A program made the translations under genes and the position numbers. The notes under the pieces are model-generated. The model was not told the origin of the DNA. It saw only the letters and a list, made by a program, of their open reading frames with translations, and ran no database searches. DNA of 64,000 bases from Schmidtea polychroa. Its lineage: Eukaryota. This document shows positions 12,331 through 35,378 of this stretch, one piece after another (position 1 is the first letter of the stretch; each line of letters begins with the position of its first letter). The DNA is taken from positions 2,790,001-2,854,000 of the forward strand of contig CM097886.1 of NCBI GenBank assembly GCA_044892525.1, in the 5' to 3' direction.

Positions 12331-15300
12331 TGTTGGGGTTACACCTCGGCTGACCGCTCTACCATATTGACGGGTCTAAGGGTTGATTGTCCATCTCGAA
12401 TAAAAGGTGCCACCGATTTGTCAACCTGGAGTGAAACCCCACATAATCTTTCTTCCAACATAGTGCCCGTGAATCACTTCACGTTGGTACTGCACTATGC
12501 AGGCGAGACACCAGCAAGCAGGTGAGCTTCTGCCTTGAAACTACTCCTTGCTGAGGCCTCGACTTCCCATTCACGACTGCCGATAGAAGGGCTTACGTCC
12601 ATTTCCTTACACAACCACTTATCAGGATTCGCTGAATGCAAATTGGGAATTTCTCACTAGATCCTGCGGGTTCTCTACTCAACCCACTTAATTAAAGTCT
12701 AATTATTCATGAACGAAAACGTGTAAGACAACAAGATTTATTAATTTCAACGTTATGACACAAGGATTCAGCTGTACACTTTACTAATGTTTGTCGAAAG
12801 AAGAGAAAACATCATAATCAACATAGATCGGATCCTTGTTCTTCATCCTGACCGCCACTGGGGTTCTATTGTTTCTCCCATTCAGCGTCGGCGAATAATT
12901 CGTCGAGGTTAAAAAACTCGGAAGCGTTCTCTTCCCACGTTACGCCAGCGGCTGATACGATTCGTGCTGAGGGTCCCGTTGTTAGGTCGATGGACACGTG
13001 AGAGTTACCACCGTTGGTTGAACCCTCTATTGATGGGATGGTTGGCTTTGTAGTGGCGCGTTCGCGCTGTCTCTTCTTGCGCTCTGCACGAGAGAGTTGT
13101 TTGCGCTTGGGTTTGCTTGAAGATGCCACTTGCAGAAGGGTGACAGGTACAGATGGACTAGCAGTGGGGGGCTTACTGGTACCCGTGACGACAACATCTG
13201 GTCGCTTGGGGGACAATTCGTTTTCGACGCAGTCTTGGCACGGTCTCTTGAACGGTGGAGATGGATTCGAGGAAAGGTTGTGATGGGGCGGAAAGATGTC
13301 ATCGGCCTCTCGGATGGGAATCTGCACTATTTTTCGGGTTGTAGCCGCCTGCACGTAAACCTTATGCAGTGCCTCGGATTGTTCTCTGATTAGACTTCTT
13401 TGGGCACGGCTCTCAGATATTAGCGCGTCCCGGCAATGCTCGCTACGATCGAGCTTCTTTTGGATCTCCTTCATCCGAGCGGGACTAAACCATGTCCCTT
13501 CCAGCTCGTCGATTTTTCGTTTATATCGACCGATCTGGGCTTGGAGATCTGTAATCACTGCATTTTTATCTGAGCAGGAGAAGCAGGGACGTAGAGCTGA
13601 TTTGTTGTTTGATAACATAATGGATGGCTAAAGAAGAAAACTATGGTGACTATATCTAAAAATTTCGGATCAGATATACGGTTTATTCGCTATTGGATAC
13701 TTAGTGCTGGAAGAAAACAAGACGAGTCGATGAAACAGGATCCCTCCCTTCACCCTTGATTACTAATAATTTACGTATCCTTTACAAAAATTATTCCTCA
13801 ACGCCCTGATTGCTTCCCTGACGAATGCAAATTATTTGTAAAAATTTTAATTTTCGTCTATCGCGTTCGAGTTGGATTTCTATCTATCGCACATAAAGGC
13901 AATTTACGGATTTGTTCATGCCGGAGTGAATAAACCTATTTCATTACAAATACACTATACTACACTTCGTTTAAATTTCGCTGATTATTTGTTGTTATTC
14001 TAATGCAAAATAAGGTTTTTGGACCACATGCGACTAGTAAAAACTTGCACCCTTACCTCAAGTAGCGGAATAAGTAACAACTCGTAATTTCGTATAAACT
14101 ATACGTCACTATTTTATGATTACCCCTTATCCATACCATACGGTGATATCGTCGTAGAAATATAGCATCGTAAAAATATTGTAATTACATAATAATTTGT
14201 TATCGGATTTAGTTTTCTATTACCATACGTCATTTACAGGGAATATGAGAAATTTAACTACAATATTACTAGCTATTTTATAACCCAAAAATTCCTGTAG
14301 ATACTTTAGTTAATTTAAATTTGGCTCGAAGGCTACTACTATTATTTGTAACATCTAATTAGAATTACGATAAACCTCTACAACACTTAGGTAAAACTTC
14401 CTATGGTTTAGTTATAAAGTTTGGTTTGAATTTTCGATTATTAATTAAAATACCCCTTCAACAATTTCGATTTTTATTTAGAATATTTAATTTAAGCAAA
14501 ATTATCTTTAATGAGTGCACTTTAGAGAGTCTCTTATCTTAGTAGTCGGTTACTGGTTATTTTGGCTTATCTTTTTAGTGGTACGAATGACCTTTATCAG
14601 TAGTGAAATTTAAGAGTCAGTCATCTGGAAGTCACATCTCATGTCAGCATTATCTAGTATGACCACTGATTACTACTCACACACTAAGAATCCTAGAGAG
14701 GGTGACACATGGCGGCATTCCCTGCGGTGAGAGGCATTCGGAATGATTCTGCTGTTTCTCATGCATATTTCTGACCGGATGACGCTACTCATAGTTATGT
14801 TAGCAGTATGTCTGTATGTATGGGTGCCTGTTCGATGGAAATTTTATCTGTAACTATCAACCGTACTGAGCGAACTGCAAATGTTACATCGCGTGTCGAT
14901 TCCCATCTGAGCTTATGATGTTGGATTTATTTACTACGACTCGTAATTTCCTCAATATTGGATGCTTTTGAACGATGGAAGATCTCTACGAACCAGCCAA
15001 CTAGACTCTATGAAGCATATTTCAGTAGTGGATATTTCGACGCAACAGCATGAAAATTATTCAATGGGTATTACCAGATTTTGTTAATATATGTGATTGA
15101 ATACAGTATTATTGTGGTTTTATGTTTTATTTTTCCCTTATTGTAAATTCCTCATCATATGCTAGGATTTGGATGTCGCATCTGAAAGAGATGACCTAAA
15201 TTAGAGTTACTTTTTCAAAAATCTACCGAATGCAATTTCAACTTCTCGATATGTTAGAAAACCAGCGATGGATGCTTAATGGTATTTTCCCCCACATGGT

Positions 15301-16490
15301 AAGTTCGGATTTATAGACAGAAGTGGCATGAATGTCTTGTAAGACGACTCTGGACAATACAGAGTTAATATGAGAACTCCCTCAGTCGCTGTGAAGCACA
15401 TATCCTATTTTCGAAAATTTCAGAAGGTTTCCTTTCGGTCTATATTTCGGTACTCTGACAGATTTTAAGTCCTTCAGCAATTGGACCCGTGAAGAAGCCT
15501 TCACATTTCGGCCCAATCTAGCTGCGTGATTGAAATACTCCATGTCCACCGGCTGAGCTCCCGAAGGCACCTCACACCATGACATGGAGTATCTCAACGC
15601 CACGTTTCTCGTTAATATTAGAAATCATAAAACTATCACTCAAAATAAATATCCATAAAAATTATGTAAGAGTTCACCTGTTACCAATAAATACTTTTAA
15701 ACATTTAAATTATTTACTTTATCAAAATCGTTATTCAGGATCAAATGAAAAGAGAGTCTGGTTAAATTTAAAAGTTTAATTGCTCATTAAATATACATAT
15801 TTACTATTAACTTCGAAAAACAATATCATAAATAAAAATCCCTTACTATGGAATTAGGCTGAATCGGAAAATTAACGTTAGTCGTTCCAAATTAGTCTGA
15901 TGATAGTTCGTCGAATGTCGATTGCTGTGACTGAGTTCGAATTGCTGTGAAGTTTTTCGAATTAACTGTTGCTCTACTTGTATTGCTGATCCTTGAAATA
16001 AGTCTCCGTGAGTTGTAGATGTCTATGAAATGCTCGGGGTTAACAGTAAAAACAGTAAACATTTTTCTTACCTATGAAATGCTCGGGGTTAACAGTAAAT
16101 TTAATGTTTTTGGTAGTTGTATATATATCAAATTCTTATTTGTGCGGACCAATCAGAGTTGAGTACCGCTTATTTCTATTAATTTAATATAATTTTCTTG
16201 TTTTTAGGTTGTTTTTTCCTTATTTTCTTTATTTTTAATATGTTTTTCTATTTATTTCCTTAATTTCCTTATTATTTCTTGAATTCCTCTTTATTTATTT
16301 GTCAACTTGTTCTATTTTAATCTTTTCTTAATTTTATTTTTTGTTTTAATTCTTATGTCTTAATTATTATCTTCCTTATATCTTATTCTATTTTATTTCT
16401 GATTTTATTTATTTTATTATTATTTTTCTTAATGTTCTACTTCCCTACTTTCTTATTTTTCAACGATTAAATTTCCGACTCAGCCCAACA
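12331..16490 (-). repeat. 3' LTR (4,160 bp)
   Basis: Direct repeat of 38572-42731; no difference seen in the segments compared by eye, and identical ORF sets in the ORF track. Confidence 0.97.
12866..13618 (-). CDS. LTR-encoded 250-aa protein of unknown function (3' LTR copy)
   Basis: Long GC-richer ORF: RPCxxC twice, coiled coil, basic KPKRKQLSRAERKKRQRER stretch, acidic/aromatic C-terminus. Acceptor ttttcttctttag 9 nt before the ATG; AATAAA at 12742-12737. Confidence 0.7.
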   Translation of the reverse strand: MLSNNKSALRPCFSCSDKNAVITDLQAQIGRYKRKIDELEGTWFSPARMKEIQKKLDRSEHCRDALISESRAQRSLIREQSEALHKVYVQAATTRKIVQIPIREADDIFPPHHNLSSNPSPPFKRPCQDCVENELSPKRPDVVVTGTSKPPTASPSVPVTLLQVASSSKPKRKQLSRAERKKRQRERATTKPTIPSIEGSTNGGNSHVSIDLTTGPSARIVSAAGVTWEENASEFFNLDELFADAEWEKQ

Positions 16491-16717: not shown

Positions 16718-17374
16718 TTATGAACTGTTAACTATTGATGCTTCTGCTGGCGGCTGTTGGTTGGTTTGGGTATTAATGTTGAGATAGGTCTGACTATTAG
16801 ATTTCGGCTGGATTGGTTGATTACTCGGGGTTCGAGGTCGGTTAAGATTTGTCAGGGGCACTTCTTGAGGATTTTGGTTCGAGGTTACTCTTATTGATGT
16901 CGAGACTCTACATCTATTTCGAACTTCGTAAATTTTCATGAATATTGGTAGACATAGGAGGAGGGTTTCTGCGATCACCACATATATGAGATAATGGGTG
17001 TCATTGATTTCGGGAGGTATTTTTGGCTTTTCTACCAGATTCCCAAAATTCTCTTGTTGCATTTGTTGTTCCAACTGGTCGAATTGTTGAATTTGTTCGA
17101 GGATTTGTTTGTTTATCATTTTACAAATGGGATTCTTTTTACACATTGTTTGGATGTTGTTGATGTGTGATCGGGTTGATTGAATGGTTTGGATGATATG
17201 GGTTTTTACGGTCATCGGGTATGTGCATTGACTGGATTCTTGTTTAGGTTCTTGATTTTGATTTCGGTAATCTCGTACGATTTTCGGTTGGGCGTCTATT
17301 TGTTTGCTCTCCATCAGAATCATCAATACCATCATTGTTATCATCATCTCGCCTCGCATGATACTATTATACAT
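16718..17374 (-). CDS. 218-aa predicted type I membrane protein, unknown
   Basis: Met-rich signal MMITMMVLMILMESKQIDA|Q, Cys-containing helical ectodomain, TM YLIYVVIAETLLLCLPIFM, and a P/Q/N/T-rich tail. Confidence 0.7.
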   Translation of the reverse strand: MYNSIMRGEMMITMMVLMILMESKQIDAQPKIVRDYRNQNQEPKQESSQCTYPMTVKTHIIQTIQSTRSHINNIQTMCKKNPICKMINKQILEQIQQFDQLEQQMQQENFGNLVEKPKIPPEINDTHYLIYVVIAETLLLCLPIFMKIYEVRNRCRVSTSIRVTSNQNPQEVPLTNLNRPRTPSNQPIQPKSNSQTYLNINTQTNQQPPAEASIVNSS

Positions 17375-17414: not shown

Positions 17415-18167
17415 TTAATGGTTCTGATTTGGATTATTTTCGCCGATTCTCATCAAGGTGGACTCTGCTTTAATTACCCTGTGTCTTAACTCGGGCAGCA
17501 TTTCCAATTGTCGGTCTTTTTCACGGGCTTCTCTCTTTAGATGTCTAATTTCTTTTTCCAAGCGTCTAATTTCTTCCCTTTTCTTTTCAAGGTTTCTTTT
17601 TAGCTCGATTTGTAGGAGATCTTGTTCGTTTTCTTGCAGGTAATTTTGTTGTTGATGTTTTCTTTCTATTTCTCTATATTTGCGGACCCACTTCCTCATT
17701 TCTTTACTTTCCCGTTGGTTTTCTTCTAGTTGTCGTTTTAATTTATTTATAGCTGTTTGGCGCTCCTTCGCCTCAGTTTTCCAGTAGTCTTGGATTACCT
17801 CCTTTGCTTTGAAGCTTGCCCTCTCTTTCCATAGTTCTTCCGCTATCTTTTCCCAGTTTTTCCCTCGCTTCCTTTGTTCGTGTAGCCATTCATTTTCCTC
17901 TTCCGTTTCTCTTTTTATTTCCCCCAACGCTTCGCACTCTTTCTTTAACACCTTTATCATTTTCCGGTCCTCCAGGTATTTGTTTATTAATCTCCCGTTT
18001 TCGTATTTCTCTTCCCGTAACTCGGCCTTTAGCGTTTGTGTTTCTGTTGTTTCTGCCTCAATCTCTCCCTCTTCTACGTCGCTCATAATTTCTATCATTT
18101 CCTCGATTTTCATATCTATAATATGTACAGTTAATGGTGCGCTATAGTGCGACTTATACGTATACAT
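17415..18167 (-). CDS. 250-aa (or 232-aa from ATG 18113) coiled-coil protein, unknown
   Basis: E/K/R-rich heptads with spaced Trp; attatag acceptor 2 nt before ATG 18113. Confidence 0.72.
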   Translation of the reverse strand: MYTYKSHYSAPLTVHIIDMKIEEMIEIMSDVEEGEIEAETTETQTLKAELREEKYENGRLINKYLEDRKMIKVLKKECEALGEIKRETEEENEWLHEQRKRGKNWEKIAEELWKERASFKAKEVIQDYWKTEAKERQTAINKLKRQLEENQRESKEMRKWVRKYREIERKHQQQNYLQENEQDLLQIELKRNLEKKREEIRRLEKEIRHLKREAREKDRQLEMLPELRHRVIKAESTLMRIGENNPNQNH

Positions 18168-18281: not shown

Positions 18282-19337
18282 TCATACGAAGGTTTCCTCC
18301 TGGCCTACATAACCTTCATCACTATCGACCGTGGAATGTAACTGTATCGCAATAGGGTCGTATGGTAGGTAATATTGGGGAATTTGAGCTCTCAATTCAC
18401 TAACTTCGTCTCTTAGAGCTCGAGTGATATTCAATTCCTCGTCGAGCAGATAGGTGAGATACCTTGTCTCTTCATCTTTCGCCTCTATCTGTTTGTCTAG
18501 GGCCTTGATTTTCTCGTCGCCCTTCCATTTTTCAATTTCTATTTCTAAGTTTTTAATATTTTCGGTGTACATTTTCCTTTCGTTTTCTAATTTTCTGTTT
18601 TTTCCCGCTAGGACCATGTTTCTTTGTTCCAGCGATCCTTGTAATCCATTAAGGTCTCTTTTCATCTCTTCTACCTGATTTACTAATTCCACAACCCGTC
18701 CCGCTTGTTGGGTTATCATCTCTTCCATTGCGGCATTCTCGTGCTCTCTTATGTCGCACTTCATTGCCAAATGTCGCTCAAACTCCATAGCCTTTGTTTG
18801 CCAGGTTTGGCTTCGGGCGGCGACCTTTCTCAACCTTTTCAATTCTTCCTTTATTATTAAATTCTCCTCCCATTTACCTTGTTCGCTTTCATATCCGAGT
18901 CTCCTGGGCAATTCTTTCATCTCTTTTTTCATGTCTCTGTTTTGTCTTTTCCATTTTCTCGCTTCTGCCACTAAGTGCATCATTTTCCTGTCTTCTATTT
19001 GCTTTTCCGCTTCGCGCTTGGTGTTCTCATCGGTAAGTCTTTTTCTCGCTTCCTGCACTAGCTGCTTTAAGTAGTGGCTGTGTGCTTCTTGGCGGGTATT
19101 TTCTAGTGACGCCCATTTTGATGCTCTTTTGCATGCTTCTGCTTCCGCTCTTAAGTTGTGTATTAACCATTGGTATTGACTATTCTCATCTTCTCTAGTT
19201 TCTTCGATGTGATTTCGGGTGAGATTAGTTAGTTGGAACATTACTTTGTTCCATTTTTTGTTATGTTCTCGGGGAATTTGTGTCTTGTTGACATTGGTTG
19301 GGTCTATCGCAGTTTCGGTTATTTTCTCTTGTGTCAT
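18282..19337 (-). CDS. 351-aa coiled-coil protein, unknown
   Basis: Long E/K/R-rich heptad ORF; tttag acceptor 2 nt before the ATG. Confidence 0.75.
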   Translation of the reverse strand: MTQEKITETAIDPTNVNKTQIPREHNKKWNKVMFQLTNLTRNHIEETREDENSQYQWLIHNLRAEAEACKRASKWASLENTRQEAHSHYLKQLVQEARKRLTDENTKREAEKQIEDRKMMHLVAEARKWKRQNRDMKKEMKELPRRLGYESEQGKWEENLIIKEELKRLRKVAARSQTWQTKAMEFERHLAMKCDIREHENAAMEEMITQQAGRVVELVNQVEEMKRDLNGLQGSLEQRNMVLAGKNRKLENERKMYTENIKNLEIEIEKWKGDEKIKALDKQIEAKDEETRYLTYLLDEELNITRALRDEVSELRAQIPQYYLPYDPIAIQLHSTVDSDEGYVGQEETFV

Positions 19338-19530
19338 TTCTAAATCATAGACATCGATTAATCTTTTTATTATGAAAAAGGAATTTATTCATTATTTACT
19401 GTTTCTTGGGAAATTTTCGCATCATTTTTGGGTTTTCGTATTTAGGGTTTTCATACTATTATTATATAATATTTTATTAGTTATATACACCGATATATAC
19501 AGATTATTATATACAACATTATTCGATTGG

Positions 19531-20919
19531 TTATTCCGTTCTACCCTTCTCCTCTTTCCTCACGGTCATCTTGATATATATGGTATCATTTCTCGCCATA
19601 TCTTCTACTCTTTGTTGTGAGATGAACGTAGGTGCTCCTGTTGCTGATCCTTCTTCGTTGAGGGGCCTCTGGTAAGCTATTTGATTCCCCGTTGTTTTGA
19701 AGCTTTGCTCATATATACTTTGGTTGTTCATCAGAGTAATATCGATTTTTGCCTGGAACGGCCATTCTAATATTTCGTCGTATTCTCCTTTACATAACAG
19801 AAAGAAAATCGAAAAGTGCGTATCTAATCCGGTTCCGTCCCCGTTGGGATATAGCTTCATTTTCATTTTGTACCCATTTTTCCAAGAATGGAATGTAGGA
19901 CTTGTTATTCTTGTCTCTTCTCCGGTTTTTGCTTTTCGTATTCTTTCTTTTACTCCCGTTATTTTCCATATGTAGGGTGCTGTTGGGGTTATCTCATTTA
20001 GATTTATTTCCCGTATTTTCTGATGTAGCTCCTTGGCCTGATTATTACTAATTTCTGTTCGGTTTATTTGCATCTTTATGTTTGCTCGGGCTTCTTCGAA
20101 CGCTTTCCTTTCTTCTAGTAGTTCTTTGACTAACACTTTCAACGATGTTATCTCTATCTCCATTTGTTTTACTTTCTCTTCGCTTTCTTGTAACGCAGTC
20201 GACCACATTTCTGCGTGAGTTGAAGCATTTTCTACTAAATGATGTGGTAACTCACCTCGGTGTAGTAATTTCTGACAACCCCATCTACCTAGTACACATG
20301 TCATTCTTTTCTTTTCGCATTCCCTTAGATGCTGTGCCACCTTTATTGTTTCCCCTTGGTTACATCCGTTTGGGCATTCCCCACTGAACTCCGCACATAC
20401 TCTCTCCTCTTGGACATTGTGATGTTTGAGGGTGAGATTTATCCACGTATCTATTTCTCCACAGTGTTCACATCTTTCCAATCTCTCCTCACACTGCCTT
20501 TGATGCTCTTTTTCTTCGCTTGCTCGAATGGTTTTATGGCACCTTTCACACTGGCCAATTCTGTACATACATTCTCCCATATGTTGTACTACCTTCCATA
20601 TTACTCCTTTCCATTCGCATGGGGCATTTTTGCATCCCAGGTTGGTGTTTAACATGTCTTTCACTGCGGCTTTATCCTCGTTAGTGTCTTCTAAACTCGA
20701 TATTAGTGTCTCTTTACACACCGGGCACCTTTGTGGTCTATTCTTTATTGCTTCACTGATACATTCTTTACATACTCTGCATCCACATTGCGTTTGGTGA
20801 GGTTCCTTTAACAACTTTTCACATATTCCGCACATAACATGTTTGTGTATTCTGATCGTTGTAGATTTTCGGACTTGCTCGACAATCTCTCTGAACTCTT
20901 CTCTTTGTCGTTTATCCAT
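19531..20919 (-). CDS. TRAF: Intronless full-length TRAF homologue (RING, zf-TRAF repeats, coiled coil, MATH), 462 aa
   Basis: CGIC..CGCRVCKEC..CPVC; five Cys/His fingers; YIWKI...SPTF...GYKMKMKLYPNGDGTGLDTHFSIFFLLCKGEYDEILEWPF...G.PTF. Confidence 0.93.
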   Translation of the reverse strand: MDKRQREEFREIVEQVRKSTTIRIHKHVMCGICEKLLKEPHQTQCGCRVCKECISEAIKNRPQRCPVCKETLISSLEDTNEDKAAVKDMLNTNLGCKNAPCEWKGVIWKVVQHMGECMYRIGQCERCHKTIRASEEKEHQRQCEERLERCEHCGEIDTWINLTLKHHNVQEERVCAEFSGECPNGCNQGETIKVAQHLRECEKKRMTCVLGRWGCQKLLHRGELPHHLVENASTHAEMWSTALQESEEKVKQMEIEITSLKVLVKELLEERKAFEEARANIKMQINRTEISNNQAKELHQKIREINLNEITPTAPYIWKITGVKERIRKAKTGEETRITSPTFHSWKNGYKMKMKLYPNGDGTGLDTHFSIFFLLCKGEYDEILEWPFQAKIDITLMNNQSIYEQSFKTTGNQIAYQRPLNEEGSATGAPTFISQQRVEDMARNDTIYIKMTVRKEEKGRTE

Positions 20920-21004
20920 TCTATAATTATATGTACAAATAGTTCTTATCGATACAGGTTCGATATTTTATTTACAATTATTTACATTTTGAGCTAGGTT
21001 TGGT

Positions 21005-21364
21005 TTAGGGTTCGGAAGAGTCGGCTTCGTGTCCGCTCTCCTCTCTATTCATTAGCCATTCCGACCAGTCTTCTATTTCTGTCTGTTCTGCTTCCTCCAT
21101 CATTCTGTCTATTTCAATTTCCTGTCGACGGCTATATTGGGTTATCCTCTCTATCTCTCTTTGCATTTGTTCGATTTTTAACCTCTGGTCTTCAATTATC
21201 TTCAAATAACTAAATCCTCTGTTCATACTCTCGATCAGGTTTCTGTGCATCGTCAGTCCTTGTTCTTGCAAATTGGACACTAATTGTGCTAATACGGCAC
21301 ATTGTTGCTTCCATAATTCTTCAGTTACTGTATTGTGGTTCATTTCGTTATTTCCTTGATCCAT
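21005..21364 (-). CDS. 119-aa coiled-coil protein, unknown (track start is a TTG at 21388; first ATG at 21364)
   Basis: Same strand and purine-rich composition as neighbouring ORFs; TAG acceptor 2 nt before the ATG; AATAAA at 20972-20967. Confidence 0.65.
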   Translation of the reverse strand: MDQGNNEMNHNTVTEELWKQQCAVLAQLVSNLQEQGLTMHRNLIESMNRGFSYLKIIEDQRLKIEQMQREIERITQYSRRQEIEIDRMMEEAEQTEIEDWSEWLMNREESGHEADSSEP

Positions 21365-21524: not shown

Positions 21525-22526
21525 CTATATACGTGAGTTTGGAGGGCGCTGAGCGTTCCAGGCCTCCACCCACTGTTCTTGTTTGATATCACTTGGTCGT
21601 TTCACTCGATGTTGGAAATTTCTGATTCGAGTCATCTCTAGTTCTCCGCGATGTCGTTTACCCTTAATTATTTTTATTGTTCCCCCCGTTATGATTAAGA
21701 ATGCCCCTGTTATTATTATCCCACTGATCCACATCATCTGCTTCACGCTTATACTCTCTGGTTTTTCCTGGTTTGTTAATGTTGATATTGCTTCTGTACT
21801 TTTCTCGTTCCCTCTTTTGCCGTTTCCTTTCATCCTTTCCCGTATTCTTGCTATTTCCTCGTTCATACCCTCCTTTGCCATCTTTTGTATTTTTTCCATC
21901 TCTTCTTCCGAAACATAGTTGTCCTGAGCTTCCTCGCCGGTTTTCTTGTGCTTTCCTCCTTCGTCCTTTTCGTCGTGGTTTTTCCTTTTCTTTCCTCTTT
22001 TCCCCGGGTATCGTCGGCATTCTCTTTTTGATTCGTTTCTCCAGATACAAACCGTATATTCCTTCGGGGGCTGCTGCTGCGTCACATATTGATGGCATCT
22101 CTCACCCGGTCCTAATCTTGAAATACAGACTTTGTGCTCTTTTCTTGGTTGGAGCTGCGTTATTACTACTTCGCCACCTTTTCCTAGGTGTACCTCTTTT
22201 CCTTTAACGTTCGTTATTCTTTTCCCGTCTCGGTTTCGGTATGCTTCTTGTATTCTTACTTCTGTTATTGGTTCTGTGTCCTCATTTATCAGTACTAGTT
22301 TCTGATACGCTCTAGACATGCATCTTCCTAGTATGCACCTTTCCTTTAAGTCCCATTCTTCCTTTAAATCCCACTGCTGCTCTTGTGCTTGCTTTTTCTT
22401 TTCTTGTTTTAGTTCGTCCTCTTTGCTATCTTGATTCTCCGCTTCTTTGGTTTCTTTTATCGTCCTCGTCCCTCCATGAGCTGTTACTAACTCTATCATG
22501 GTAAGCATAATTATCATTAATATCAT
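21525..22526 (-). other. C-terminal second membrane-protein module (signal-like segment, Cys-containing ectodomain, TM, short tail)
   Basis: MILMIIMLTMIELVTA|HG (22526-22479); VVITQLQPRKEHKVCI, resembling an FN3 strand motif; TM MMWISGIIITGAFLIITGGTIKII (21737-21666). Confidence 0.6.
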
Positions 22527-25500
22527 ATTTGTCTCTATTTCTTTGTTAGTGAAAGGTAGGCATACCCTCTGTTTTCCATTATTCGATTTTTCCTCCTCTT
22601 TGGTCTTAGTTCCCGGGCTGTTTCCCTCTCTTTTCGTATCCGAATCCTTGTTTTCCGGTTTACCCTCCTCCGGTTCTCTTTTCTCTTTGTCCTCCTTTCG
22701 GCCTTTTCCGTTATTGTCATCGTGTTTATCTCCCCCGCTGTCGTTTAAAATGTCGTCCTCGACATTTATATCGTTCAATAATCTGCGATATGCTGTTAGC
22801 ACTCTGTTTCTTGCTAATTTTGCTTCGAATTCAAACTCTTTTCTACCCGTTGCAGCATGTCTCTTTCTATTCCATTCTTTAACTAACTCTCTCAATTGCA
22901 TACGACGATGTTTCCCAATTCGTTGTTGCTCGTTCTGATTTTGCGTGAATTTTAGGTCTTCTCTATTTAATACTATTAAAATAATTTTAGGCGTCCCCCC
23001 CTTAGTTAGGGTATTCTTTACCATCGCATTTTCTCCGTTTTCGTAGAATTCGTTTACATTTATCGCATATTTATTATTTTGTGGTACTCTCCAGGTTAAT
23101 AATAATTTCATTGCTTCTAGATTTTTCCGTACCGTATTCCATTGAAACTGAGATGTGTTTTTGCACATATTTTCAACTTCTTCTTTTGTCGCATTTTTGC
23201 AAATAAATCTGATCATTTCTAAGTTTGGCTGTATGGTTGCCCAGTCCAAGGTGGAATTTCCTTCATTGGACTTTTCGTCTAGTTTCGATCCTGATTGATG
23301 TAGGATGTGGAGTGTTTTTGGGTGTATTTTCGTTATAGCTGCATACATCATGGCGGTTTCACCTTGTTCATTTTTCGTGTTGGTTTCCTCGCCCATCTCT
23401 CCAAGGATTCTCACGATCGTTATTGCTCTATTTTCTTTCGCCGCTAGTATTGCTTGTTGTAGGGGTGTTCTGGAATCCTTCGTTACCATCGTAAATGCTC
23501 GAGGCAAGAAGGTTTTGATTTTCCCGATATCCAAATCCGTGGTTTGATCTCTTGCGTATGTGTGTACGGCTTTTATTATTTTGGACAATATTATGTCGTC
23601 TGGCAGCTCTAGCATTTCCTCAAAGAACACTTCTTTTGCTTTGCGTATTATTGCCTCTTGATCTATACTCATTGATTTGGTTTTGATGACGTTGTTTGTG
23701 ACCGTTTGGTTCGTTGTTGACTTTGATTCCCTGGATTTCTCATACCTTATTTTCGTTTTCTTTCCGTTTGGATTATTGATTCGTTCCTCTGCTGTAAGTA
23801 TTTGGATAATATCCAGGTAATTCTCGCGGATGTTATTCATTGTGTCCATCATATATAACACACTTACCGTTTCCCAATATTTATTTCGTACTTGGTTAGT
23901 AAATTGGAATAGTGATTTTTCGAATGTGTCGATTCGCTTTTTTGTTAACTGTTCGTCTTTGTGATTTGTGAAATTTATTCCTCGTTCTAGTAATTGATTC
24001 GGAATTTCGAATAAATGATGTCCTTTCATAGCTTCTCTCATCAGCGTGTTCTCTCCTCTCGTGAACGCTTCGTTTACGTTGATCATATAATCGTTTTGAA
24101 TTGGATTTCTCCATGTAATTAATATTCCGGTAATTGTCGTCAGTTTTTCTTTGATCGCTGTTAACAATCCATCATACATGTTTCCGACTTCCCGATTGTC
24201 CTCATATGATAGTAGTTCCATCAATGACGTGAACGCCTCGGTACTTCTCCCTTCGATGGCATGATGTAGAGCGTTTTTCCGCTCGTGGTCTTGTGTAGTT
24301 ATTTTCGATCCGGTATCGAGTAATGCGGTTATAATGTCTTTTGTTTTGCCTCTGTTTGCGGCTATCATTAATGGTGTGTAACCTTGGTTGTTTGTTTGTT
24401 CTGTTGATCGCTTGCAGTCGTGAAATGCTTCTATTGTTTCTAGTATTTGCTCGTTGTTACCTACTTTCATGAGTTTGTGTAATGGTGTGTCTCCGTAATG
24501 ATCTGTTATTGTAAATAATATTGGCCATTGGCTTTTGACTACTCGCAATAATGGGTGTGTCCTTTCTCTATTTGCATAGTTCTCGATCATCGTCAATAAT
24601 CCTCCTAATATTTCGAAATCTAATCGATCTTTTGCCCATCCAGGTATTTTAATTTTTACCTCCTTTACAATCTTTTCCGCTTCTGATGGTTGGATACCTA
24701 ATCGTCCAGTGATTGGTTCTGCGAGTTGTTGCATCATGTTCATTCGGTAGGTTTGCGAACGTGTGGTTAATGTACGGCCTTCTGGTTGACTAGTGGCTGT
24801 TTTTGGAATTGATTTGCATCGTGCCACGTTTACGTATATTGGTCTGGTAAAGGGGTTATTTACCAATTTCACTCTTACATTAGTTTCGCCTACGAATAAG
24901 ATCTCATATGGTCCTTTTCCGTTGCGTTGTAACTTTTTTGTGGTTCCTGGAATTAATTCCGGGGTTTCTATCATTACCCAATCACCTGTTTGGAACGTAT
25001 GTTGCTTCACGTTTTTCTTTCGATCGTGTAAATCTTTATAACTTTCCTGGTAGAACTTGATATTTAATCCCGCAGTTTCCCAAATTTCTTGCATTCTTTC
25101 CTTGAATTTCGTAACATAATCATCGATCTCCATATACTGCGATATCGGTGGTTGGTATTCCAGGTCCATTGGCATATTACATTCTCTTCCGTACATTAAT
25201 TTGAATGGGCTCATTTTCGTTGATGCGTGAATCGACATTCTGTACGCCATAAGACATAGGTTTATATATTCATCCCAATCTCGTTGGTGACGGTCAACGT
25301 AGTTTGATAACATTTGTATAAGTGTTCCATTAAATCTTTCCGTCATCCCATTGGTTTGAGGGTGGTATGGAGATGTTCTTAGTTTTGCTATTTTGAAGTA
25401 ATTTGTTACTTCGCTCATTATCTCACTCATAAAATTAGTTCCCTGATCGGTTAAGATTTGTTTTGGTGTTCCATATCGGCAACATATCTCTTCTACCAAA

Positions 25501-28500
25501 ATTTTTGCGATTGTTTTAGCTTTTTGGTCTGGCATCGCGAATGCTTCTGGGAATTTCGTAAGAAAGTCTGTGATCACTAGAATGTAAACGTTTCCTTTAT
25601 CTGACTCTGGTAGTGGACCAACTACGTCCATGGATATCATTGTCATTGGTTCTATTGGTACTGGCATTGGTGTTAAAGGTGCTTTCCATTTCGATCCAGT
25701 ATTCTTCCTGGTTGCACAAGTTAGACAATTTTTTACCCATTCAGTTACATCTTCAGTTAACGTAGGCCAAAAATATTTCTGTTTCATTCTTGCTAACGTC
25801 TTTTTCGATGACATATGTCCTCCCAATCTCCCATCGTGATATTGCGTTAGTAACTCTTTTCGTCGGTTTTCCGGTATACACATTAATCGTTTTTCCCCAT
25901 CCATTATCAGCAACCAATCTTTCTCTATAATATATCGGTGTCGGTGTTTATCCATATGTTCTTTTAATTTTTGGTCTTTCGCATATACCTCTGTCTTTCC
26001 GGTTTTTACATAATCGATAATTTGTTTTAATTCCGCGTCCTCTTGTTGGTCCTTTCGTAATTGACAGAAATCCAAATCTTCCGCTACTATTAAGCATATG
26101 CGTTGCATTTCTGGATCCACCAAATCTGGGAAAATAAATCTTGACATACAATCGGCGTTGGCATTTGCTCTTCCCGCTTTAAATTTTATAAATGGGGAGT
26201 ATTCTTGCAATTGCATGGCCCATCTCATCAGTCTACTGGACGCTTCTTTATGTTGCCCTAACCACACTAATGGTTGATGGTCTGTGGTTATGCATATCTC
26301 ATGTCCCCATAGTAAATATCGGAAGTGTTTGATAGCTTGTATTATAGCCAATGCTTCTCGTTCTGTTACCGAATAGTTCTTTTCGTGCTTTTTGAATGTT
26401 CGACTGTAATACCCGATTACTCTCTCTTTTCCCTCATCGTCCAATTGTCCCAGAATCGCGCCTGCCGCGTACCCGCTTGCATCCGTTGCCAATAGAAATG
26501 GCTTCTTAAAATCTGGGTGTACGAGGATAGGTGCTTCGATTAGTTTGTCTCTCAGCGTTTCAAACGCCTCTTGTTGTTCCTTCCCCCATAAGAACGAAAT
26601 GTCCTTCTTTACTAGTTCCTGGATTGGTTTTGCAATTCCTGCATAATTTTTGATAAATTTGCGATAGTATCCGCATAATCCTAGAAATTCCTGAACTTGG
26701 GTGACAGTTTTCGGTGCTGGACATGTTTTTATTTTCTCAATGTTTCTTGGATCTGGCTCCTTTCCTTTAGCTGACACTATGTGTCCTAAAAACGTGACTT
26801 TTTCCTTTGCCCAATCGCATTTTGATGGTTTGAGTTTGAGTTTCCACTGTCTTAATCTAATAAATACGTTTCGGATATCTTCTAGATGTTGTTCAAATGT
26901 CGCTGAATAGATTAGTAAATCATCAATATATACCATACATTGTTTGATTCCATGGGTGACAAAGTTCATACACCGTTGAAATGATGCTGGTGCGTTAGTC
27001 AGTCCAAATGGCATTTTCCTGAATTGATATAGATCTCGTCCCAACGTGAAAGCTGTTTTCTCTTTGTCCTCATCTTTGACTTTAATCTGCCAGTATCCAC
27101 TTTTTAGATCTAGAGAAGTAAAATATGCTGCCCCTTGCAACATCAATAACATCTCATTGATGTCCGGCAATGGATAGGTATCTCTCTTGGTCACTGCGTT
27201 TAACTTCCGATAATCGATACAGAATCGTTGGGTGCCATCTTTCTTTTTCACCATGACCACTGGGAATTGCCAAGGTGAGCAACTTGGTTCGATTACTTTT
27301 GCGTCTAGCATCTTTTGTACTTCTGTTTCGGCTATTTCTTTCTGCATTTCTGCTAGCTTGTATGGTCTCAATGCAATTGGGGTTTCGTCTATGAGTGGTA
27401 TTGCATGTAAGGTAACATCACATGTACCCAAGTCTAAATCTGAGATGGCGAATATATCTTTATATTCTACCAACAATCGGTGCAATTTTTTCTTTTCATC
27501 ATTCGTCAACAACATACTATCTATTGTCCATAATTCATCATCTTTGATCATCTCGTTGGTCACTTTCGGTAATTCTATGTCCATCATTGGGGTCAATCTT
27601 CCCAATTTTTCGTTCTCATAAATGATTTTGTCTTCCTCTTCGAAATTCGTGATGTTGAGCGGTATCACTCCTTCTTGGTTTATTGTGATTATTTCTCTTG
27701 CGAGTGGTAATTCTCGTCGCTTTTCGAATGACTTGCTTGGTTCAAAGATAACTTCTCCTTCCATACCCGTATCCACTTTTATCTGACAAATCATCTGCGA
27801 TTTTGCTGGTACTATTATTTTTTCTGGACATCTGATGACTGCATTCATTTTGCATATTCTACCGGTTTTGTCTTTTAAACACATGGTTGTTAAGTCAATT
27901 ACGACTTCTTTTAACAATTCTGGCATCAAATCCGTTCCGATTATGCATGGTACGCTAAGTTTTGGTATTACTGCCAAATACGTTTCAATTTCGTTGTCCT
28001 GGTATCTCAATGTAGTCCACCATCTTCCGACCACGTCCACTGTTTCTTTACTACATGCTATGATGTGAATTGTTGTTGATTCGATATCTTTCCAGTGTTT
28101 ACTGGGAATTTGATTAATCGCTATCGCTGATACATTAGCTCCTGTGTCTATCATAGCATTGGTTTCTTGACCATTGATTTGGATCATGACTGTCACTGCT
28201 GGACCTCCAGGTAAACTCATCGCTGCTATTGTTCTTACGTCATCTGCTTGATCTACACTTTTGGTACGTCGTGTTGGCATATAATGCATACCGGGTTGAC
28301 TCGGTAATTGCGGATACATATTTTGTGTCATGGTCAAAGCTGTTTGTGGTCCCACGATATCCGGTGGTATATAGCTTCCATTGGCGATCCAGGTGTTTGT
28401 CTTTTCCTTTTCCCAATATGGTGCCGTTTCCATTGGTTTTTCGTTTGGGTTTCTGTTTGGATAAAGACATTTATCGTTCCCGTTATCATCGTCGTCACTA

Positions 28501-31500
28501 TCGCTGTTAGATGATTGGCTTCTAAATCGGTCCAAGAATTTTGGCTTATTCTTTTTCAATTGTCGTCTTGTTGCTTCATCGTACATTACTTTCCGGAATC
28601 GTCTGCCTACTTCTTCGTCGGTTCCTTTAATCTTTGTTAATATTTTTATCAATCGCTTTATCCGATGGATGTCTTTTGAGTGGCCATGTAATACCATGGT
28701 TTTAGCTAAAAATGGTAAGAAGCCTACTATCATTTTCCAGTTAACTTTCTTTTCCCGCTTGTATATATCGAAACAAGCTAACATTTGTGTTAGTATTACT
28801 CTGACTATCTGAATTATGAGTATGATCCCTAATATCCCGGCCATCATTTGTCCGAAAACTAAGAATCTTCCCCACATTGCTTTCATCATGTTTGACGTAG
28901 CTTGTTGAAAATGGTCTGGCGATAATAGCAGCTCGTAATTCGGGCCTGATTGATAGTTTGTGCCCCCAGTTATTGTTACCATATTAGACAAAATGGATTC
29001 TCGTCTGGCTGGGAAGAGTACGTTAAGTCGTGCTGTTTCTAGATCTTCTGGGGAATACATACCACCGTTTGACACGTCTATAGGTTTGAAATCCAGCTCT
29101 GTGGCGAGTTCTATTAATCCAAATTTCTTGGGCTCCTCGGATATGGTTTTTCCCGGTAACATCATCCATTTCCCATCGGGCCTTTCATATAAAGGTCCGT
29201 ATGCATTAGAACAGTTAAAGAGATTTGGGTAGAAACCCACTGGATTCATAATTCTAGTGACTGGTTGGACGAATCGATTTTGTCCTTTATAACGAATTTC
29301 TAATTCATTTGCACATCTCTTTTCGGGTAGTATGGATTTTTCTGGCATTCGTGCATACGTCTTGGTACACTGGTATGTGTACATCACTTCTCCTACCATT
29401 CTACCAAAGTGTCCATCTGGTAATGGGAGTGATGGCATCGTGTTATCGGGGTGCGTTATCGCAATAGCTAGCTTTGTTTTCAATATTTCTTTATTCAATG
29501 AACAATCGTTTTGTATCAGATCGTAATATACTTTTTGCAAGGTCGTTTGTCCACGATGAAATAGAAAATCCATTTTATTATTTGCATATAAGTATAGTTT
29601 TACGTCCTCCGTTGCTATCTTTCCCACTGCTCTATCGATTATTTGTCTCGACATGTAGATACCTGCGTAATTGGTTTTATATACTATACTGTCACATTTG
29701 GTGGTTTCTTTCTCTTTGATAAATCTCATACCTAGATCTGGATCGTCTGTGATTAATGCTGTTGGTGTCTTCTGCGTTGAAAGTCTCTTTTCTCTGGGAG
29801 ATGGTGGCATTGGTTTTCCATTTCGCATTCTCACTCTGTCGTTTCCATCCTCGTCGTTCTCGTTCTCATATATTTCTCCTTTTACTTCATTGAACAAAGC
29901 ACTTTTTAACAGTTGGAGTCGGCATTTTTGGGTATTAGCTTCATAGATTATAGTTGATACTCCTGTCCTACATACGTTTTCTGTAGCTTTACACGTTGGG
30001 TTGGTCTTCATTTGATAATTATTTGCGTCAAATTGCGCTTCGTATTCTTTTAATTCAACCGTGTAAGACTCGATCACTACGACTCCCGATATTACCTCGC
30101 CTCGGATCGTATACGTACCTCCGTTACATGACCCATCTGATGATTTTACTTTTCCGGATACGTAAACACTTTCGGTTTTAATCATTCCAGTTTGTCCGTG
30201 AATCGTCACTCCGTTATGCATTTTTAGCGCTCCGGTTCTAAATAGCTCTTTACAATCCTCTCGTTGTATTGATACGATTTCTTTATCCAGACCAGGTAGT
30301 ATAAGAGTCGAATACGAATATTGTCCACAGTAATATGCGAGTACCTTTTTTGATACCACGCATTCCCTTGCTTGCGTTCTGATGAAATCTGATTCTTGAT
30401 ATACATGGTAAGTAACTTTTGTTCTCACGATGTCCAATTTGTTGGGTGAGGCTTGTCTGCATTCTTCTATGTCTCTCAACGAGTATTTGTCTCTCATTAT
30501 CATATTATCACAATCGTAGATGGTAAAACCTGTTGCTCCACTTGTGCACAACATCCATATCATCATAGTCATCATTAACGAATTTATCGATGCTTTTCGG
30601 CTTGCTGGGTCTTTCATGGGTAGTTCCCATTCTAGTTCATTCAACAACTTCTTCAATCTAACTTGCATCGACCTTTCTTGCTCATTTTTTCGTGGCGCTT
30701 GTATAAGTCTTTTCCATCCTCCGGCACGAATAATATGTGGTTCAATAGTATTCTCTATGATTGAAACGGTCATTTCCACATGATTTGCAAACTGTTTATT
30801 TGGTATTTTCCTCGCAGCTAGTCCCATCAAATTATACATCAAATAAGTGATTACCACTAGGTGATGCTCGTCATCATTTGCATTTGTCGTGAGCTGCTCA
30901 ATCACTCTCTTTGTTTCGTCCCAATCCGTTTTGGTGGTTTTCGTTTTCTCTTTGATTAACTTTGGGATTATCCCCGAAACGATGTGCCATAATTGTCTAG
31001 CTTCCGTACTGGCTACTTTCCGTTGCCACAAACGTCTAAGTTGTGGGTTTGTTATTATTAACATATCTTTGATCAATTCTCGTATCCATTTTTCTCCTCT
31101 TTCGATCGTTGGTTGGGCTTCCTTTAGATCCCATACTATTTTATCCAATTTTTCTAATCGAACTTGCCCTTGTTCTTGCTTTAATTGTTCTTTGGTTTTG
31201 AACTCAGACTTTTCTCCTTGTTTCTTAGGTCTTCCTTTTGCCCGTTTTTCCATCATCGTTCCGGCTTCTCTGGTATTTTCGTAATTCGGATTTCTTTCGT
31301 TATCCGTTCTGGGTAATGAGCTATCGTTATTTCTTAGCCACTCATTCCATTCGTCTATTATTTTATCGGTTTGACCTTCTGGTGTTACTTTCGTTGGTTC
31401 TCTTTGCTTCTGGAATTGTTCATCCGTTTCGGTTTCCGTAGTATTGTCGATGATTTCTTTGCTGTTCAGTTTCGTTGGTTGTTGATAACTCGTTGATGGC

Positions 31501-34500
31501 TGGTTATTAGTCCACATTTCGGCTCCTGTCGGCCATCTCACTAATAGCGGTGATCTTTCTCCTGGTTCATCGTCACTATCTTCCAGGATTATCTCTTCAA
31601 CTTCTTCAGTTTCATTAGATTTACTTGGTGCTTTGTTCGGACTTGGAGTACTCAAACTGCCTTTTGTTGGTTTAATAATTTTACTTTTCCTTTTTAACGG
31701 TTTTCCCAACGTTTCTGCCATTGTTAACACATTTGTCTCTTCCAATCTCATGGGTGTTATCCCGACGTCTGCATTATCGTCTAGTGATTTTCCGAACAGT
31801 TGCAGATGGAATGGAGTTTCATATGCTAATTTCTTTTTTAATTCTCTAATTTTTGTTGTTGGATGCACCTCTAGTTCCTCGATGCTCTTGTCCGGATACT
31901 TGATTCGGATGTGATACCTCTCCTGAGTGTCTTGTGCCCATTCCTGATTTCTCCATTTTCGAATAATTTGTTCTAGCTGTTCTGGATACCATTCATTATA
32001 TTGCCGGTATTCCTCTATTGCCTTTGCCATTCCTCTCAGATTGTGGATGTTCTCTGATGTCTTTAAGATGATGTTAGCCAACGCTACTACTTGGCGTTTT
32101 TGATTTTTCGCTCCCATTGCTAAGATATCGCCTAATTGTTTATATCTTTCTGTCTCTTCTCGTTCTCTTGCTTCCGTCGCTTCCTCGCCGTCCATATCAG
32201 CATATTCACGTTCCTTTTTCCTCATTGCATGAATATGTCTCGCTTCATTTTCGCTTTCTGATGTGACATCCGTCTCGCTTTCGTCATCTGATGTCTGTCC
32301 CCTTGCTTCCTCTTCATATTCTGGGGGTTCCTCTTCTTCTTCCTCCGATTCACTTTCTGTCTCACCAATGTCTGTTTCTACGAAGATTCCTTTCCGGATT
32401 TCCCATTCCTTACTTTCTGCATTCCACACTCTTTCCCATGGGGTTCGTCTGCAGGATCTGGTATTTAATTTCGTGATTTTTCCTTGTAGCTCTTTTTCTT
32501 TTAACCATTGTTGGTGGATTTCAATTATTTCTGTCGATTTTTGATACAACGTTTTCATCCGGTCTCGTATTTCTTTTTGATATGTTACATCTCTTGTTCG
32601 GAATTCATCCATTGGTACTATCCTGATTATCTGATGATTGTCCCACATACCCATTTCGCTTAACGAGGTGTCGTCCTCCGCTCGTAATATTATCTTATCG
32701 TACATCATGACTACATCATCCACCATACCATCACTACTTTCGCTACGTACCTTTTCCGTTATCTCTTGGTTTATTTTTGATACCAAGTCATCCACTGTAC
32801 TCTGATTGCTCATTCTTATTCGTCGTTTTTCTTCGTTCGGTAACCATATGGTTATTTCCAACCTCTGTGGCTGGGTTTCTTTTAACCTTCCATATTTGTG
32901 GATCAAATTTATGGTTCTCCAATCACTCATTCGGAGCATTTCTGTATCTCGCAACCGGCTCATTAGTTCGTACATGGCTGGGGCTCGTCTGGTGATGAGT
33001 AAATCCCAGTTGTCTTCTACTTGTTCTTGAATTTGTTTGATCAGCTTATCCAGGTTTCGTCTCAGAGTACATTGTTTTATTTGTTCTAATTTCAATTTGA
33101 TATTAAAATCATATTCTGCCTTGGCATCTTTAGCCCAATCGTAAAGGTGGGCTGGTTGTTTTTCTTTATGCAACTTCAGTATTTGCGTTTCTCCTGGCCA
33201 TATTAGTGCATCTACTAAGTGCATATCTGGTTTGATCCGTCCTCCTTGGTATTGATACAGATATTCTTTCTTTCTCGAACTTCCCAAATGTTCTCGTATC
33301 CAATCGAAAAGTTCGTCGGTGACTGTATTTTTTATCCACATTCTTTCAAGTCCTCTACTCGTTCCAATTTTTATTACATACCGCGTGGTATCGGCCTGCT
33401 TCATTTTTTCCATATAGTTTTTTATAATTGGTTTTTCCTCGTTTGGTATTAGATCTTTCTCGTTTCTTTCCAATTTCATCACTTTTTGCACGAATCGCCT
33501 GAATGGTATTACGTCGATGAACTCTTGGTTCCTCACTACTACTGGGAGTATTTCGGCTACCTGTTTTATCGCTTCCTCCCTTGCTTTTCTCAACTTTATT
33601 TCGATATCTTCGTCTTCACTTTCGCTGGTTATCTCGTTTCCGCTTTCTTCCTCTTTGATTTCCCCTTTTGAGGGTTCGCTTATTTCATTCGGCTGTAGTA
33701 TTTCTCCACCCAAACTACTTACATAATCTTCTTCTTCGTCTGACGATGCTACATCTTTTGTCCTTTTCATCATATTGATTTGCAAGTTTCTCATCCTTGG
33801 TACTCTCTTTAGTTTCTTTCTTTCGAATATTGTTGTTTCTTCTGATTCTGATTCTTGTAGCATTTGGTGATTTAGTTGACTGGTTTGTTCCTCGCTCTTG
33901 TTATTTTCATCTTCTGTCTCAGTTTTCGCTTTATTATGTTCTTTTTCGATTTTATCCTTTATCTTTTTCCAGAATATTTTCTGAATTCTCTGGTTTCCCT
34001 TTGAAATCGTGGTTGAATTCTCTGTTTTCATTTCCGTTGTTATTTCCTTTACTTTTTCTGGTTCAGTCATGGGTACTACCCTTGGGCTTTTCCCGTAATT
34101 GTAGCAATACTGGCTCTTCATGTCTTTTACTAACTTCATCATATTTATTCGCAATGGTTGTTCTTGTCGTTGTTGGTTGCGTTCTTGTTTTATCCTCTCT
34201 TCCTCGGCCTGTAGCCTTTGCCATTCTTGTACATGTTGATGCACTTCATAATTGTTGAGATTTTCGGTACTCCTCATCATACGTATATTCTGGGTTTGTT
34301 GTGGTGCTGATTCTTGTCTTGGTCTCATCATTTGTTGCATCATCTGTTTCATCTGCGAAATTTCCTGCATAACGTTCATTTGTTTTCCTTCGTTAGGGTT
34401 ACTTTGTCGTTGCGGATTCGCTATATAATTATTATTTCGCTGTGGTGGTCGTTGTTGTTGGCCCCTTTCTCGGCAATCTCTGGAGATGTGACCTGGCTGA

Positions 34501-35378
34501 CCACAGTTAAAACAGCCTCGCAATTGGCATACATTTTCGGTATGTCCACGCCGTCCGCAACGATTACAATTTGAATTTCTATAACAATCTCTGTCCCAGT
34601 GTCCTGGTTTACCGCATGTTCGGCACTGCTTGTTATCGTTCATATTTCGCCGATTATTGAAATTGTTCTCATTATTCGGGTTGTTACGATTACCATTATT
34701 CCCGTTTGATCGTCCTTGTGGTGGTTTGAAAATTTGGTGCGCTCCTGGTATAAATTGATTCATTTTCGGTTCTTGATTGTTGTTATCTCCGTTATCCGCT
34801 TTCGCTATTGCTGTCGCTATCCTTCCCTCCTCTTGCATAATATTCATTTGAGCTGGAAGGTGGAGCTCGCATCTTGTAGCCCAATCTATGGCTTCCTCTA
34901 ATGTTTTGCACATTTGACAACCTACTGAGGCTCTTACTTCTTCTCGGCGTAATCCCTCTATGAAATAACCAATCAGATTTTCTTCGGGTAATTTTCCATT
35001 CATTGCTTTCTTCGCTAATCTCCGCAATTCACTGGCATATAATGTTATCGATTCGTTTGCTCTTTGTTTCCTATTTGCTAGTTCGCCCAACGCCTGGTTG
35101 ATTGGCTTACTGGCTCCGAAGGTTTTCTTCAGGAATGTTTTAATATCTTCCCACTTTTCTAATTTCGTGTCTCTCTCTTTAGCTTCTAAATATACCTCTA
35201 ATGCACTATCGCACAAAAACAACGGCATCCTTTTACTAATTGCTTCGGGTGTCCATCCACACACAGTGATATAAACTTCAAAATTAGTTATGAACGTTGC
35301 TAGCTTGTTTGCATTTCCGTTGAACGGTTCTCCTCTGAACTTCTCTTTATACTCGTCGGTTTTTACGACATTCGTCAT
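21525..35378 (-). CDS. 4,617-aa single-ORF polyprotein: Gag-Ubl x3-Bcl2-like-Env-PR-RT-RH-IN-ANK-membrane module
   Basis: Uninterrupted ORF; domain motifs are itemised in the following features. Confidence 0.95.
   Translation of the reverse strand: [4617 protein letters not shown]
22995..24500 (-). other. Two ankyrin-repeat blocks (24020-24500, 22995-23475) fused downstream of integrase
   Basis: [48 protein letters not shown]. Confidence 0.85.
24800..25860 (-). other. Integrase (HHCC, DDE, GPY/F)
   Basis: HDGRLGGH...CLTC; [34 protein letters not shown]. Confidence 0.95.
26150..27420 (-). other. pol: Reverse transcriptase (YIDD 26930-26919) and RNase H
   Basis: [75 protein letters not shown]. 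Confidence 0.97.
27600..28200 (-). other. Aspartic protease (DTG at 28148) followed by a dUTPase-fold-like spacer
   Basis: [12 protein letters not shown]...IIGTDLM; spacer [15 protein letters not shown]...IPLNITNF. Confidence 0.85.
28791..30587 (-). other. env: Envelope glycoprotein, chuvirus (Jingchuvirales) G-like / class III fusogen-like, with internal signal peptide and TM anchor
   Basis: Signal [21 protein letters not shown] (30587-30528); YDC, [51 protein letters not shown]...LFPA motifs; furin-like REKR (29795-29784); TM [25 protein letters not shown] (28865-28791). Confidence 0.8.
30700..31170 (-). other. Bcl-2-like helical domain
   Basis: BH2-like [14 protein letters not shown] and a divergent BH1-position segment [16 protein letters not shown] at Bcl-2-like spacing; the NWGR motif is not conserved. 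Confidence 0.55.
31719..33386 (-). other. Three ubiquitin/SUMO-like modules (33168-33386, 32613-32861, 31719-31916)
   Basis: Each about 65-85 aa with a beta-grasp-like pattern, e.g. [30 protein letters not shown]...[10 protein letters not shown] and [29 protein letters not shown]. Recognised by eye only. Confidence 0.55.
34473..35378 (-). other. gag: Gag region: capsid-like domain plus three CCHC zinc knuckles (aa 252-302)
   Basis: [19 protein letters not shown]...W; [42 protein letters not shown]. Confidence 0.9.

Follow-up and report, generated by a model that had tools for sequence, protein, structure and literature searches.

The giant gypsy-like LTR retrotransposons of planarians known as Burro, or GYPSM1, are traced to Jurka (2007) and Grohme (2018) in a 2019 review, whose accessible text names MATH_TRAF_C, BIR, RING and BCL2-like domains among their cargo (PMC6431247). 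The MATH_TRAF_C domain is placed there in the polyprotein of Burro1 and, in Dugesia tigrina, in an accessory ORF; interference of Burro with apoptosis and ubiquitination is treated as a possibility awaiting test (PMC6431247). TRAF-domain cargo in Burro and TRAFs borne by viruses are already known in this sense. One of the latter, ORF111L of the megalocytivirus ISKNV, shares with the gene described here a host origin, a RING, a coiled coil and a MATH domain; it differs in its length of 296 aa, in its carrier, a fish DNA virus, and in that it binds TRADD and induces caspase-8 apoptosis, according to the part of that report consulted (PMC3352826). The two are independent captures. In the literature searched, the 2019 review was the sole link between Burro and TRAF, naming in its accessible text the MATH domain alone (PMC6431247), and neither a full-length Burro TRAF nor selection on one was found; original figures and supplements may show more.

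The present work examines such a gene in 64,000 nucleotides of the Schmidtea polychroa genome (contig CM097886.1, positions 2,790,001 to 2,854,000), the whole of which is called the window below. New are a full-length gene that occupies a conserved slot, the evidence of selection on it, a Cys RING of the host lineage and a pattern of acceptor-like sites.

The carrier element and its families

The gene lies, as the earlier note had proposed, inside a mobile element, which is intact, spans 12331-42731 (30,401 bp) and is bounded by LTRs of 4,160 bp, 100% identical to each other and with TG...CA ends. Its features, in the direction of reading, are the following:

38572..42731, minus strand: 5' LTR, 4,160 bp, TGTTGGG...CCCAACA, containing a 250-aa ORF at 39107-39859
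37744..38229, minus strand: 161-aa accessory ORF with an IAP-type C-terminal RING and no BIR (PF13920, E 3e-11)
21525..35378, minus strand: polyprotein, 4,617 aa, with gag, CCHC knuckles, fusion glycoprotein, protease, RT, RNase H, integrase and ankyrin repeats
21005..21364, minus strand: 119-aa accessory ORF (ORF119) immediately ahead of TRAF, with a family-B homologue in the same place
20921..20923, minus strand: TAG resembling a splice acceptor (putative function), ending 1 nt ahead of the TRAF ATG
19531..20919, minus strand: full-length TRAF-like accessory ORF, 462 aa, frame unbroken from ATG to stop
18282..19337, minus strand: 351-aa accessory ORF rich in coiled coil, with a homologue in family B
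17415..18167, minus strand: 250-aa accessory ORF rich in coiled coil
16718..17374, minus strand: 218-aa ORF, hydrophobic at its N-terminus, for which a single membrane helix is predicted
12331..16490, minus strand: 3' LTR, 100% identical to the 5' LTR; a 4-bp target duplication, CTAT, flanks both LTRs

The identity of the LTRs and the CTAT duplication mark the insertion as very recent. By its size, multi-kilobase LTRs, giant polyprotein, ankyrin repeats and apoptosis/ubiquitin cargo, the element is, as judged from its sequence, of the Burro type, a match made on the published description of layout and cargo. Burro and the window element have in common a length of about 30 kb, long LTRs, one polyprotein (4,600-5,100 aa in Burro), ankyrin repeats, accessory ORFs and an env-like fusion protein between gag and protease, as far as the accessible text of the review describes them (PMC6431247). 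In the window polyprotein the fusion glycoprotein (PF24664, aa 1868-2207) lies in frame between gag and the protease (aa 2397-2488), the ankyrin repeats exceed the Pfam cut-off, and weak Bcl-2-like (E 0.03) and ubiquitin-like (E 0.005) matches fall below it. Pfam finds no MATH domain in this polyprotein, and a BIR domain is likewise absent from the window element; in this the window family differs from Burro1, under which it is not filed for that reason, and from family B, which has both and the full TRAF gene besides. Whereas the MATH_TRAF_C of the review's accessible text belongs to the polyprotein or an upstream ORF (PMC6431247), here a complete RING-five-finger-coil-MATH gene stands downstream of pol.

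A full TRAF is the second ORF after pol in families A2 (86% identical), C (69%) and B (28%), the family-B gene being a RING-finger-MATH ORF of 474 aa in the same slot. Family B is Burro1-like, with a MATH domain in its polyprotein and a BIR+RING gene right after TRAF, which families A, A2 and C do not have. This IAP-like gene (392 aa, L063:2555-3733) is matched almost identically at least 150 times in the genome. No conserved ligase partner within the element is evident, since the window family has no BIR-RING gene after TRAF. A TRAF-IAP pair in family B was considered and set aside, as the BIR in question scores higher against NAIP/XIAP chains than against cIAP BIR1 chains and the window family has no BIR-RING gene. 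The idea that the membrane ORF mimics a receptor and partners TRAF was also dropped, no TRAF-binding motif being conserved in its tail across families. The second MATH domain of family B, which is RING-less, occupies aa 1080-1224 of the polyprotein (L064, L069). Since its grouping with the stand-alone element TRAFs is weak (84/50), it may have been captured separately or have arisen by an old duplication.

Several further observations concern the structure of these elements. The LTR ORFs at 39107-39859 and 12866-13618 are intact, encode 250 aa and have no Pfam match; homologues 37-63% identical occur in families C and A2, and weak ones in L074. A primer-site-like stretch (38548-38571), which in our estimation resembles a tRNA-Pro site, begins 7 nt within the 5' LTR; its conservation in family C is 97%. 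The 3' LTR has no adjoining purine tract (16491-16540), and TGATT adjoins both inner LTR ends. The leader ahead of gag (36635-37122) holds a 74-bp tandem array of 6.6 copies, 97% alike, which is present in family C too. Some elements stand in tandem and share an LTR, the copies being spaced one element length minus one LTR (C2:177699304 with 177725516; C2:156130028 with 156159971). At 45546-48932 the window also holds a separate 3.4-kb element with inverted repeats of about 670 bp, 98% complementary, which is probably a non-autonomous DNA transposon.

Domain make-up and probable host origin of the TRAF gene

The complete order of TRAF modules that had been read from the sequence, namely RING, five fingers, coil and MATH, is indeed present in one frame of 462 codons:

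20716..20832, minus strand: C4C4 RING, aa 30-68; 8 Cys invariant in 90/90 copies, omega 0.11
20215..20634, minus strand: five TRAF-type zinc fingers, aa 96-235, by ligand pattern; H-x8-C insertion in finger 3
19984..20211, minus strand: coiled-coil (TRAF-N)-like stretch, aa 237-312, by heptad pattern; precedes MATH as in TRAF3
19558..19980, minus strand: MATH/TRAF-C domain, aa 314-454, by Pfam and PDB matches

Pfam reports above its cut-off the RING (PF00097, aa 29-68) and the MATH domain (aa 316-453; PF22486, E 6e-27, and PF21355, E 9e-27). Its zf-TRAF models stay below cut-off, the five Cys/His fingers having been called from the sequence; fingers 1-2 align to TRAF5/6, and in the family-B homologue the zinc-finger model PF02176 does pass the cut-off. 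Among PDB entries, the MATH domain is matched best by TRAF1/2/3 (E 1e-27) and the RING-finger part by TRAF5/6/2; TRAF3 chains align from aa 245 on. By its MATH domain, TRAF-N coil, fingers and RING with eight zinc ligands, the predicted protein is a member of the TRAF family.

The RING, fingers, coiled coil and MATH domain are those of vertebrate TRAF2/3/5, from which the element protein departs in a longer finger 3, a shorter coiled coil, an altered groove and a Cys in place of the RING His. The last of these had been noticed earlier, and the alignment, which sets CGCRVC opposite CGHRFC of TRAF5 and TRAF6, bears it out. In the MATH groove Y357, D361, F407, G428 and P430 are retained, the serine triad S-S-S of TRAF2 is replaced by Q-I-A, and position 355, Arg in TRAF2, is K in the window copy (K/R among copies). 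In TRAF2-type grooves such residues have roles in binding PxQxT-like receptor tails.

The gene was compared with TRAFs of the host, sampled as 30 loci and a few more out of the best 150 of 1,551 MATH candidates, the lower half of those 150 being dominated by family B. Identity to the element TRAF runs from 22 to 31% among the host genes examined, the nearest reaching 30-31%; likeness at the DNA level is negligible. The near-identity to a host gene by which a recent passive capture might be recognised was not found among them; together with retention of the slot in a family 28% identical, these values uphold the proposal of an old host capture. Domain order, the C4C4 RING, the finger-3 insertion, single-frame coding (in nine genes) and loss of the serine triad are common to the element gene and planarian host TRAFs, for which PMC7586133, PMC6109357 and the Dendrocoelum lacteum TRAF-2, -4 and -5 entries were used in part. 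The element gene differs from them in being 22-31% identical, A-rich and multicopy inside a mobile element.

Two features that had been taken as marks of the element prove to be host features as well. Cys stands at the RING His position in 27/27 distinct host TRAF-like RINGs seen, and because all of them have it, the Cys RING is considered to be inherited from the host lineage rather than to characterise the element; it also occurs in three Dendrocoelum lacteum proteins and a few unrelated database rows. The absence of introns had been taken to point to an mRNA intermediate, yet nine host TRAF-like genes hold RING and MATH within a single open frame, so capture via mRNA is not demonstrated by it, plausible as that route is for a retroelement. 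The A-rich composition noted earlier is, on the other hand, that of the element (A 0.41 and T 0.185 in the TRAF ORF; A 0.41 and T 0.196 in the polyprotein), host TRAFs having T 0.27-0.32. On C2, at 105-124 Mb and 1-6 Mb (L037-L060), there is a large clustered family of host TRAF-like genes; these have a Cys RING where seen, and their RING and MATH lie in different frames, the genes being split or intron-bearing.

The finger-3 insertion, H-x8 to x11-C, is common to the element and planarian host TRAFs and appears in three database rows as well (P0064, P0094, P0134), whereas five named non-flatworm rows have H-x3/4-C. Host planarian TRAFs likewise do not carry the TRAF2 serine triad. In the trees, four database proteins fall together with the stand-alone element TRAFs in a single clade (SH-aLRT 99, quick tree; 98/81 for MATH), and a branch with support of 98 separates the element and planarian host TRAFs from 17 other rows. 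The tree with host TRAFs that the earlier note had called for thus supports an element clade and its planarian side; it does not single out a donor gene, and none is named here because the backbone among planarian TRAF clades is weak. The clade and the shared traits support a planarian host origin of the element TRAF, which has probably been carried since before the Burro families split.

The traits held in common, that is the RING Cys, the finger-3 insertion and single-frame coding, could also be read in the opposite direction, the intron-free TRAF-like genes of the planarian host having descended from an element-borne copy, and the root of the tree leaves room for this. We hold such a flow to be highly improbable: no host gene is nested within the element clade, the Dendrocoelum lacteum proteins sit in host clades, and the host genes are host-like in composition. 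Eight ten-kb loci around host genes contain no polyprotein or accessory remnants in element order, but merely scattered repeat fragments in 4/8 of them.

Copies of the gene and purifying selection

Copies of the gene were gathered in two ways. The first list, the best 92 of 2,082 candidates scored in the genome, comprises copies that are all full length (92/92) at 94-100% identity, 91/92 being stop-free. Because a list made by best score favours intact copies, a second sample was chosen through the neighbouring ORF119; it holds 150 copies, of which 141 were examined, 91 of them in the first list (most judged by stop count alone) and 50 more. Among these 141 the gene is open and full length in 121 (one with its start codon unaligned), broken or partial in 18, and affected by large in-frame deletions in two; every stop or frameshift is confined to one copy and none is shared. 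TRAF was missing at the expected place in two neighbouring copies. Broken copies exist, and the breaks have not spread. The earlier note had named frequent disabling mutations in other copies as evidence against its reading, and with 121/141 examined copies open no such frequency is seen.

Divergence between subfamilies agrees with this. Against the window copy, dN/dS is 0.11 for family A2 (0.070/0.652) and, with dS there close to saturation, 0.07-0.08 for family C; the comparison for RT/RNase H gives 0.01. Within 75 family-A copies pN/pS is 0.16 for variants present in at least two copies and 0.40 for single-copy variants (134:212 vs 106:69; Fisher p 3e-6). In a set of 90 copies, obtained from 108 after removing 18 for stops or gaps, all 28 zinc ligands are retained save for 4 single-copy changes in the fingers. 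I32, L36, P66 and a basic residue at 69 of the RING, which we take to face the E2, are kept in 89-90 of the 90. Maximum-likelihood omega on 40 representative copies, treated by the model as non-recombining, comes to 0.11 in the RING and in MATH, and to 0.18 in the fingers and in the coiled coil. The TRAF is under purifying selection, with dN/dS far below 1 in every domain, and the proposal that it is kept under selection holds up, the values of 0.07-0.11 between subfamilies being joined by disabling changes private to single copies. Conservation of the RING variant and the MATH groove, for which a check had been suggested, is found across the copies in both. Diversifying selection in the groove was considered and rejected, omega being 0.107 in its 27 codons and 0.112 in the rest.

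These data bear on whether the gene is merely a passenger, a captured host sequence that is open through the youth of its copies. The window copy is very young, its LTRs being 100% identical, and the 92 copies of the first list were selected by best score. The frame, however, is open across subfamilies at dS 0.65 to >2 and across families 28% identical, amino-acid changes are depleted among shared variants, and the composition is like the element and unlike host TRAFs. The cross-family slot, dN/dS and the depletion among shared variants refute the passenger, to which we assign next to no probability.

In L143-L191 many copies are 96-97% window-like in ORF119 (protein) and about 89% in TRAF (DNA), a mismatch hinting that rates are uneven or that subfamilies have recombined.

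Acceptor-like sites, possible function and meaning

A TAG ends 1-2 nt ahead of the TRAF ATG in 4/4 families. Over the accessory starts of the four families, counted in the window (16718-21524, 37744-38229 and 39107-39859) and in homologues in L063, L064, L106, L108, L114 and L116, a YAG ends 0-5 nt ahead of the ATG at 22/28, a count in which two of the 28 starts, both in the window, were picked only once they had been inspected, and to which families A, A2 and C do not contribute independently. The background is 33/179 at internal ATGs, 12-17% in shuffled spacers, 1/5 at host TRAF starts and 1/4 at polyprotein starts. As YAG precedes most accessory starts, each accessory gene may have an mRNA of its own, spliced or trans-spliced. 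The spacers between ORFs are very AT-rich, and 4/5 contain AATAAA. No clear leader donor was singled out in the element. One run guessed to be RNA covers 30/30 bins of 16500-36400, mostly at 90-95% likeness; no joint or loose end at the TRAF start was found among those listed for this interval (three guessed-RNA runs and one other).

Overall we favour, with moderate confidence, a selected host-derived TRAF that probably acts in Burro as an active signalling adaptor or ubiquitin ligase aiding the survival of cells in which the element is active. Translation of the ORF would proceed from a subgenomic RNA formed by splicing or trans-splicing at the TAG ahead of its ATG, and the protein would trimerise through coiled coil and MATH. 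The altered MATH groove may bind a partner other than, or a range wider than, the classic PxQxT receptor tails, while RING and fingers may recruit an E2 or scaffold a ligase; the outcome would be reduced cell death or a weakened defence response, in parallel with the other apoptosis/ubiquitin cargo of the element. A C4C4 RING whose ligands are all Cys can go with E3 activity, as in CNOT4 (PMC4431670, consulted in part), and knockdown of two planarian host TRAFs raises cell death and is lethal according to the accessible part of PMC7586133. The direction of any effect on apoptosis is not safe, because the viral TRAF of ISKNV promotes apoptosis (PMC3352826, accessible part).

A dominant-negative decoy, the other function suggested in the earlier note, would in its full-length form occupy receptor tails or join host TRAF trimers, with RING and fingers serving folding or binding. 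The host offers many TRAF-like genes as targets, and the groove is unlike that of TRAF2 (K355 for Arg, Q-I-A for S-S-S), but host TRAFs have lost the serine triad also. A84 of the element TRAF stands at a position where TRAF6 has the Phe required for RING dimers, and TRAF2-type RINGs are weak ligases; the Ala fits a weak ligase. Against this, RING and MATH are equally constrained, omega being 0.11 in both, for which reason the active adaptor or ligase is favoured over the decoy; purifying selection on the RING means that the fold matters and does not itself mean ubiquitin transfer. Known dominant-negative TRAFs are those without RING and fingers, in the accessible text of PMC2212104, and family B, which has such a RING-less MATH in its polyprotein, keeps the whole gene nonetheless, which again favours the active protein. 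The decoy is thus considered unlikely.

Distinctly unlikely, in our view, is an active ligase or scaffold that serves the element's own cycle, through polyprotein turnover, particle assembly or removal of restriction factors, and not survival signalling. Such a role would suit the position of TRAF amid element-specific coiled-coil and membrane ORFs in conserved order, as well as the weak ubiquitin-like stretch in the polyprotein (below cut-off). The groove, however, bears no sign of an arms race, and the remaining cargo, BIR and Bcl-2-like, points to control of cell death. Extending the favoured adaptor or ligase to the whole element, one may tentatively picture Burro as expressing, through spliced or trans-spliced RNAs, a cassette of cell-death regulators taken from hosts, with its complete TRAF serving as an active ubiquitin ligase that keeps host cells alive for the element, a joint reading towards which we lean less than away.

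For the biology of Burro, a stand-alone TRAF of 462 aa validated by selection is a handle for testing the role of these elements in apoptosis and ubiquitination. Counts of planarian TRAF genes and transcripts, and RNAi or piRNA results on them, can include element copies, and the Cys RING is to be studied as a trait of the planarian host, not as an invention of the element. The PIWI protein SMEDWI-3 turns traf, ankyrin and E3-ligase mRNAs into piRNAs, and the domain classes of its targets, as given in the accessible part of that report (PMC6824462), are classes carried by Burro. If the active-ligase reading is true, this would be the first active ubiquitin ligase TRAF shown for a retroelement; the element TRAFs, with hundreds of intact copies, would then form part of the reported planarian TRAF expansion, and they would help to explain why SMEDWI-3 degrades traf and ankyrin mRNAs.
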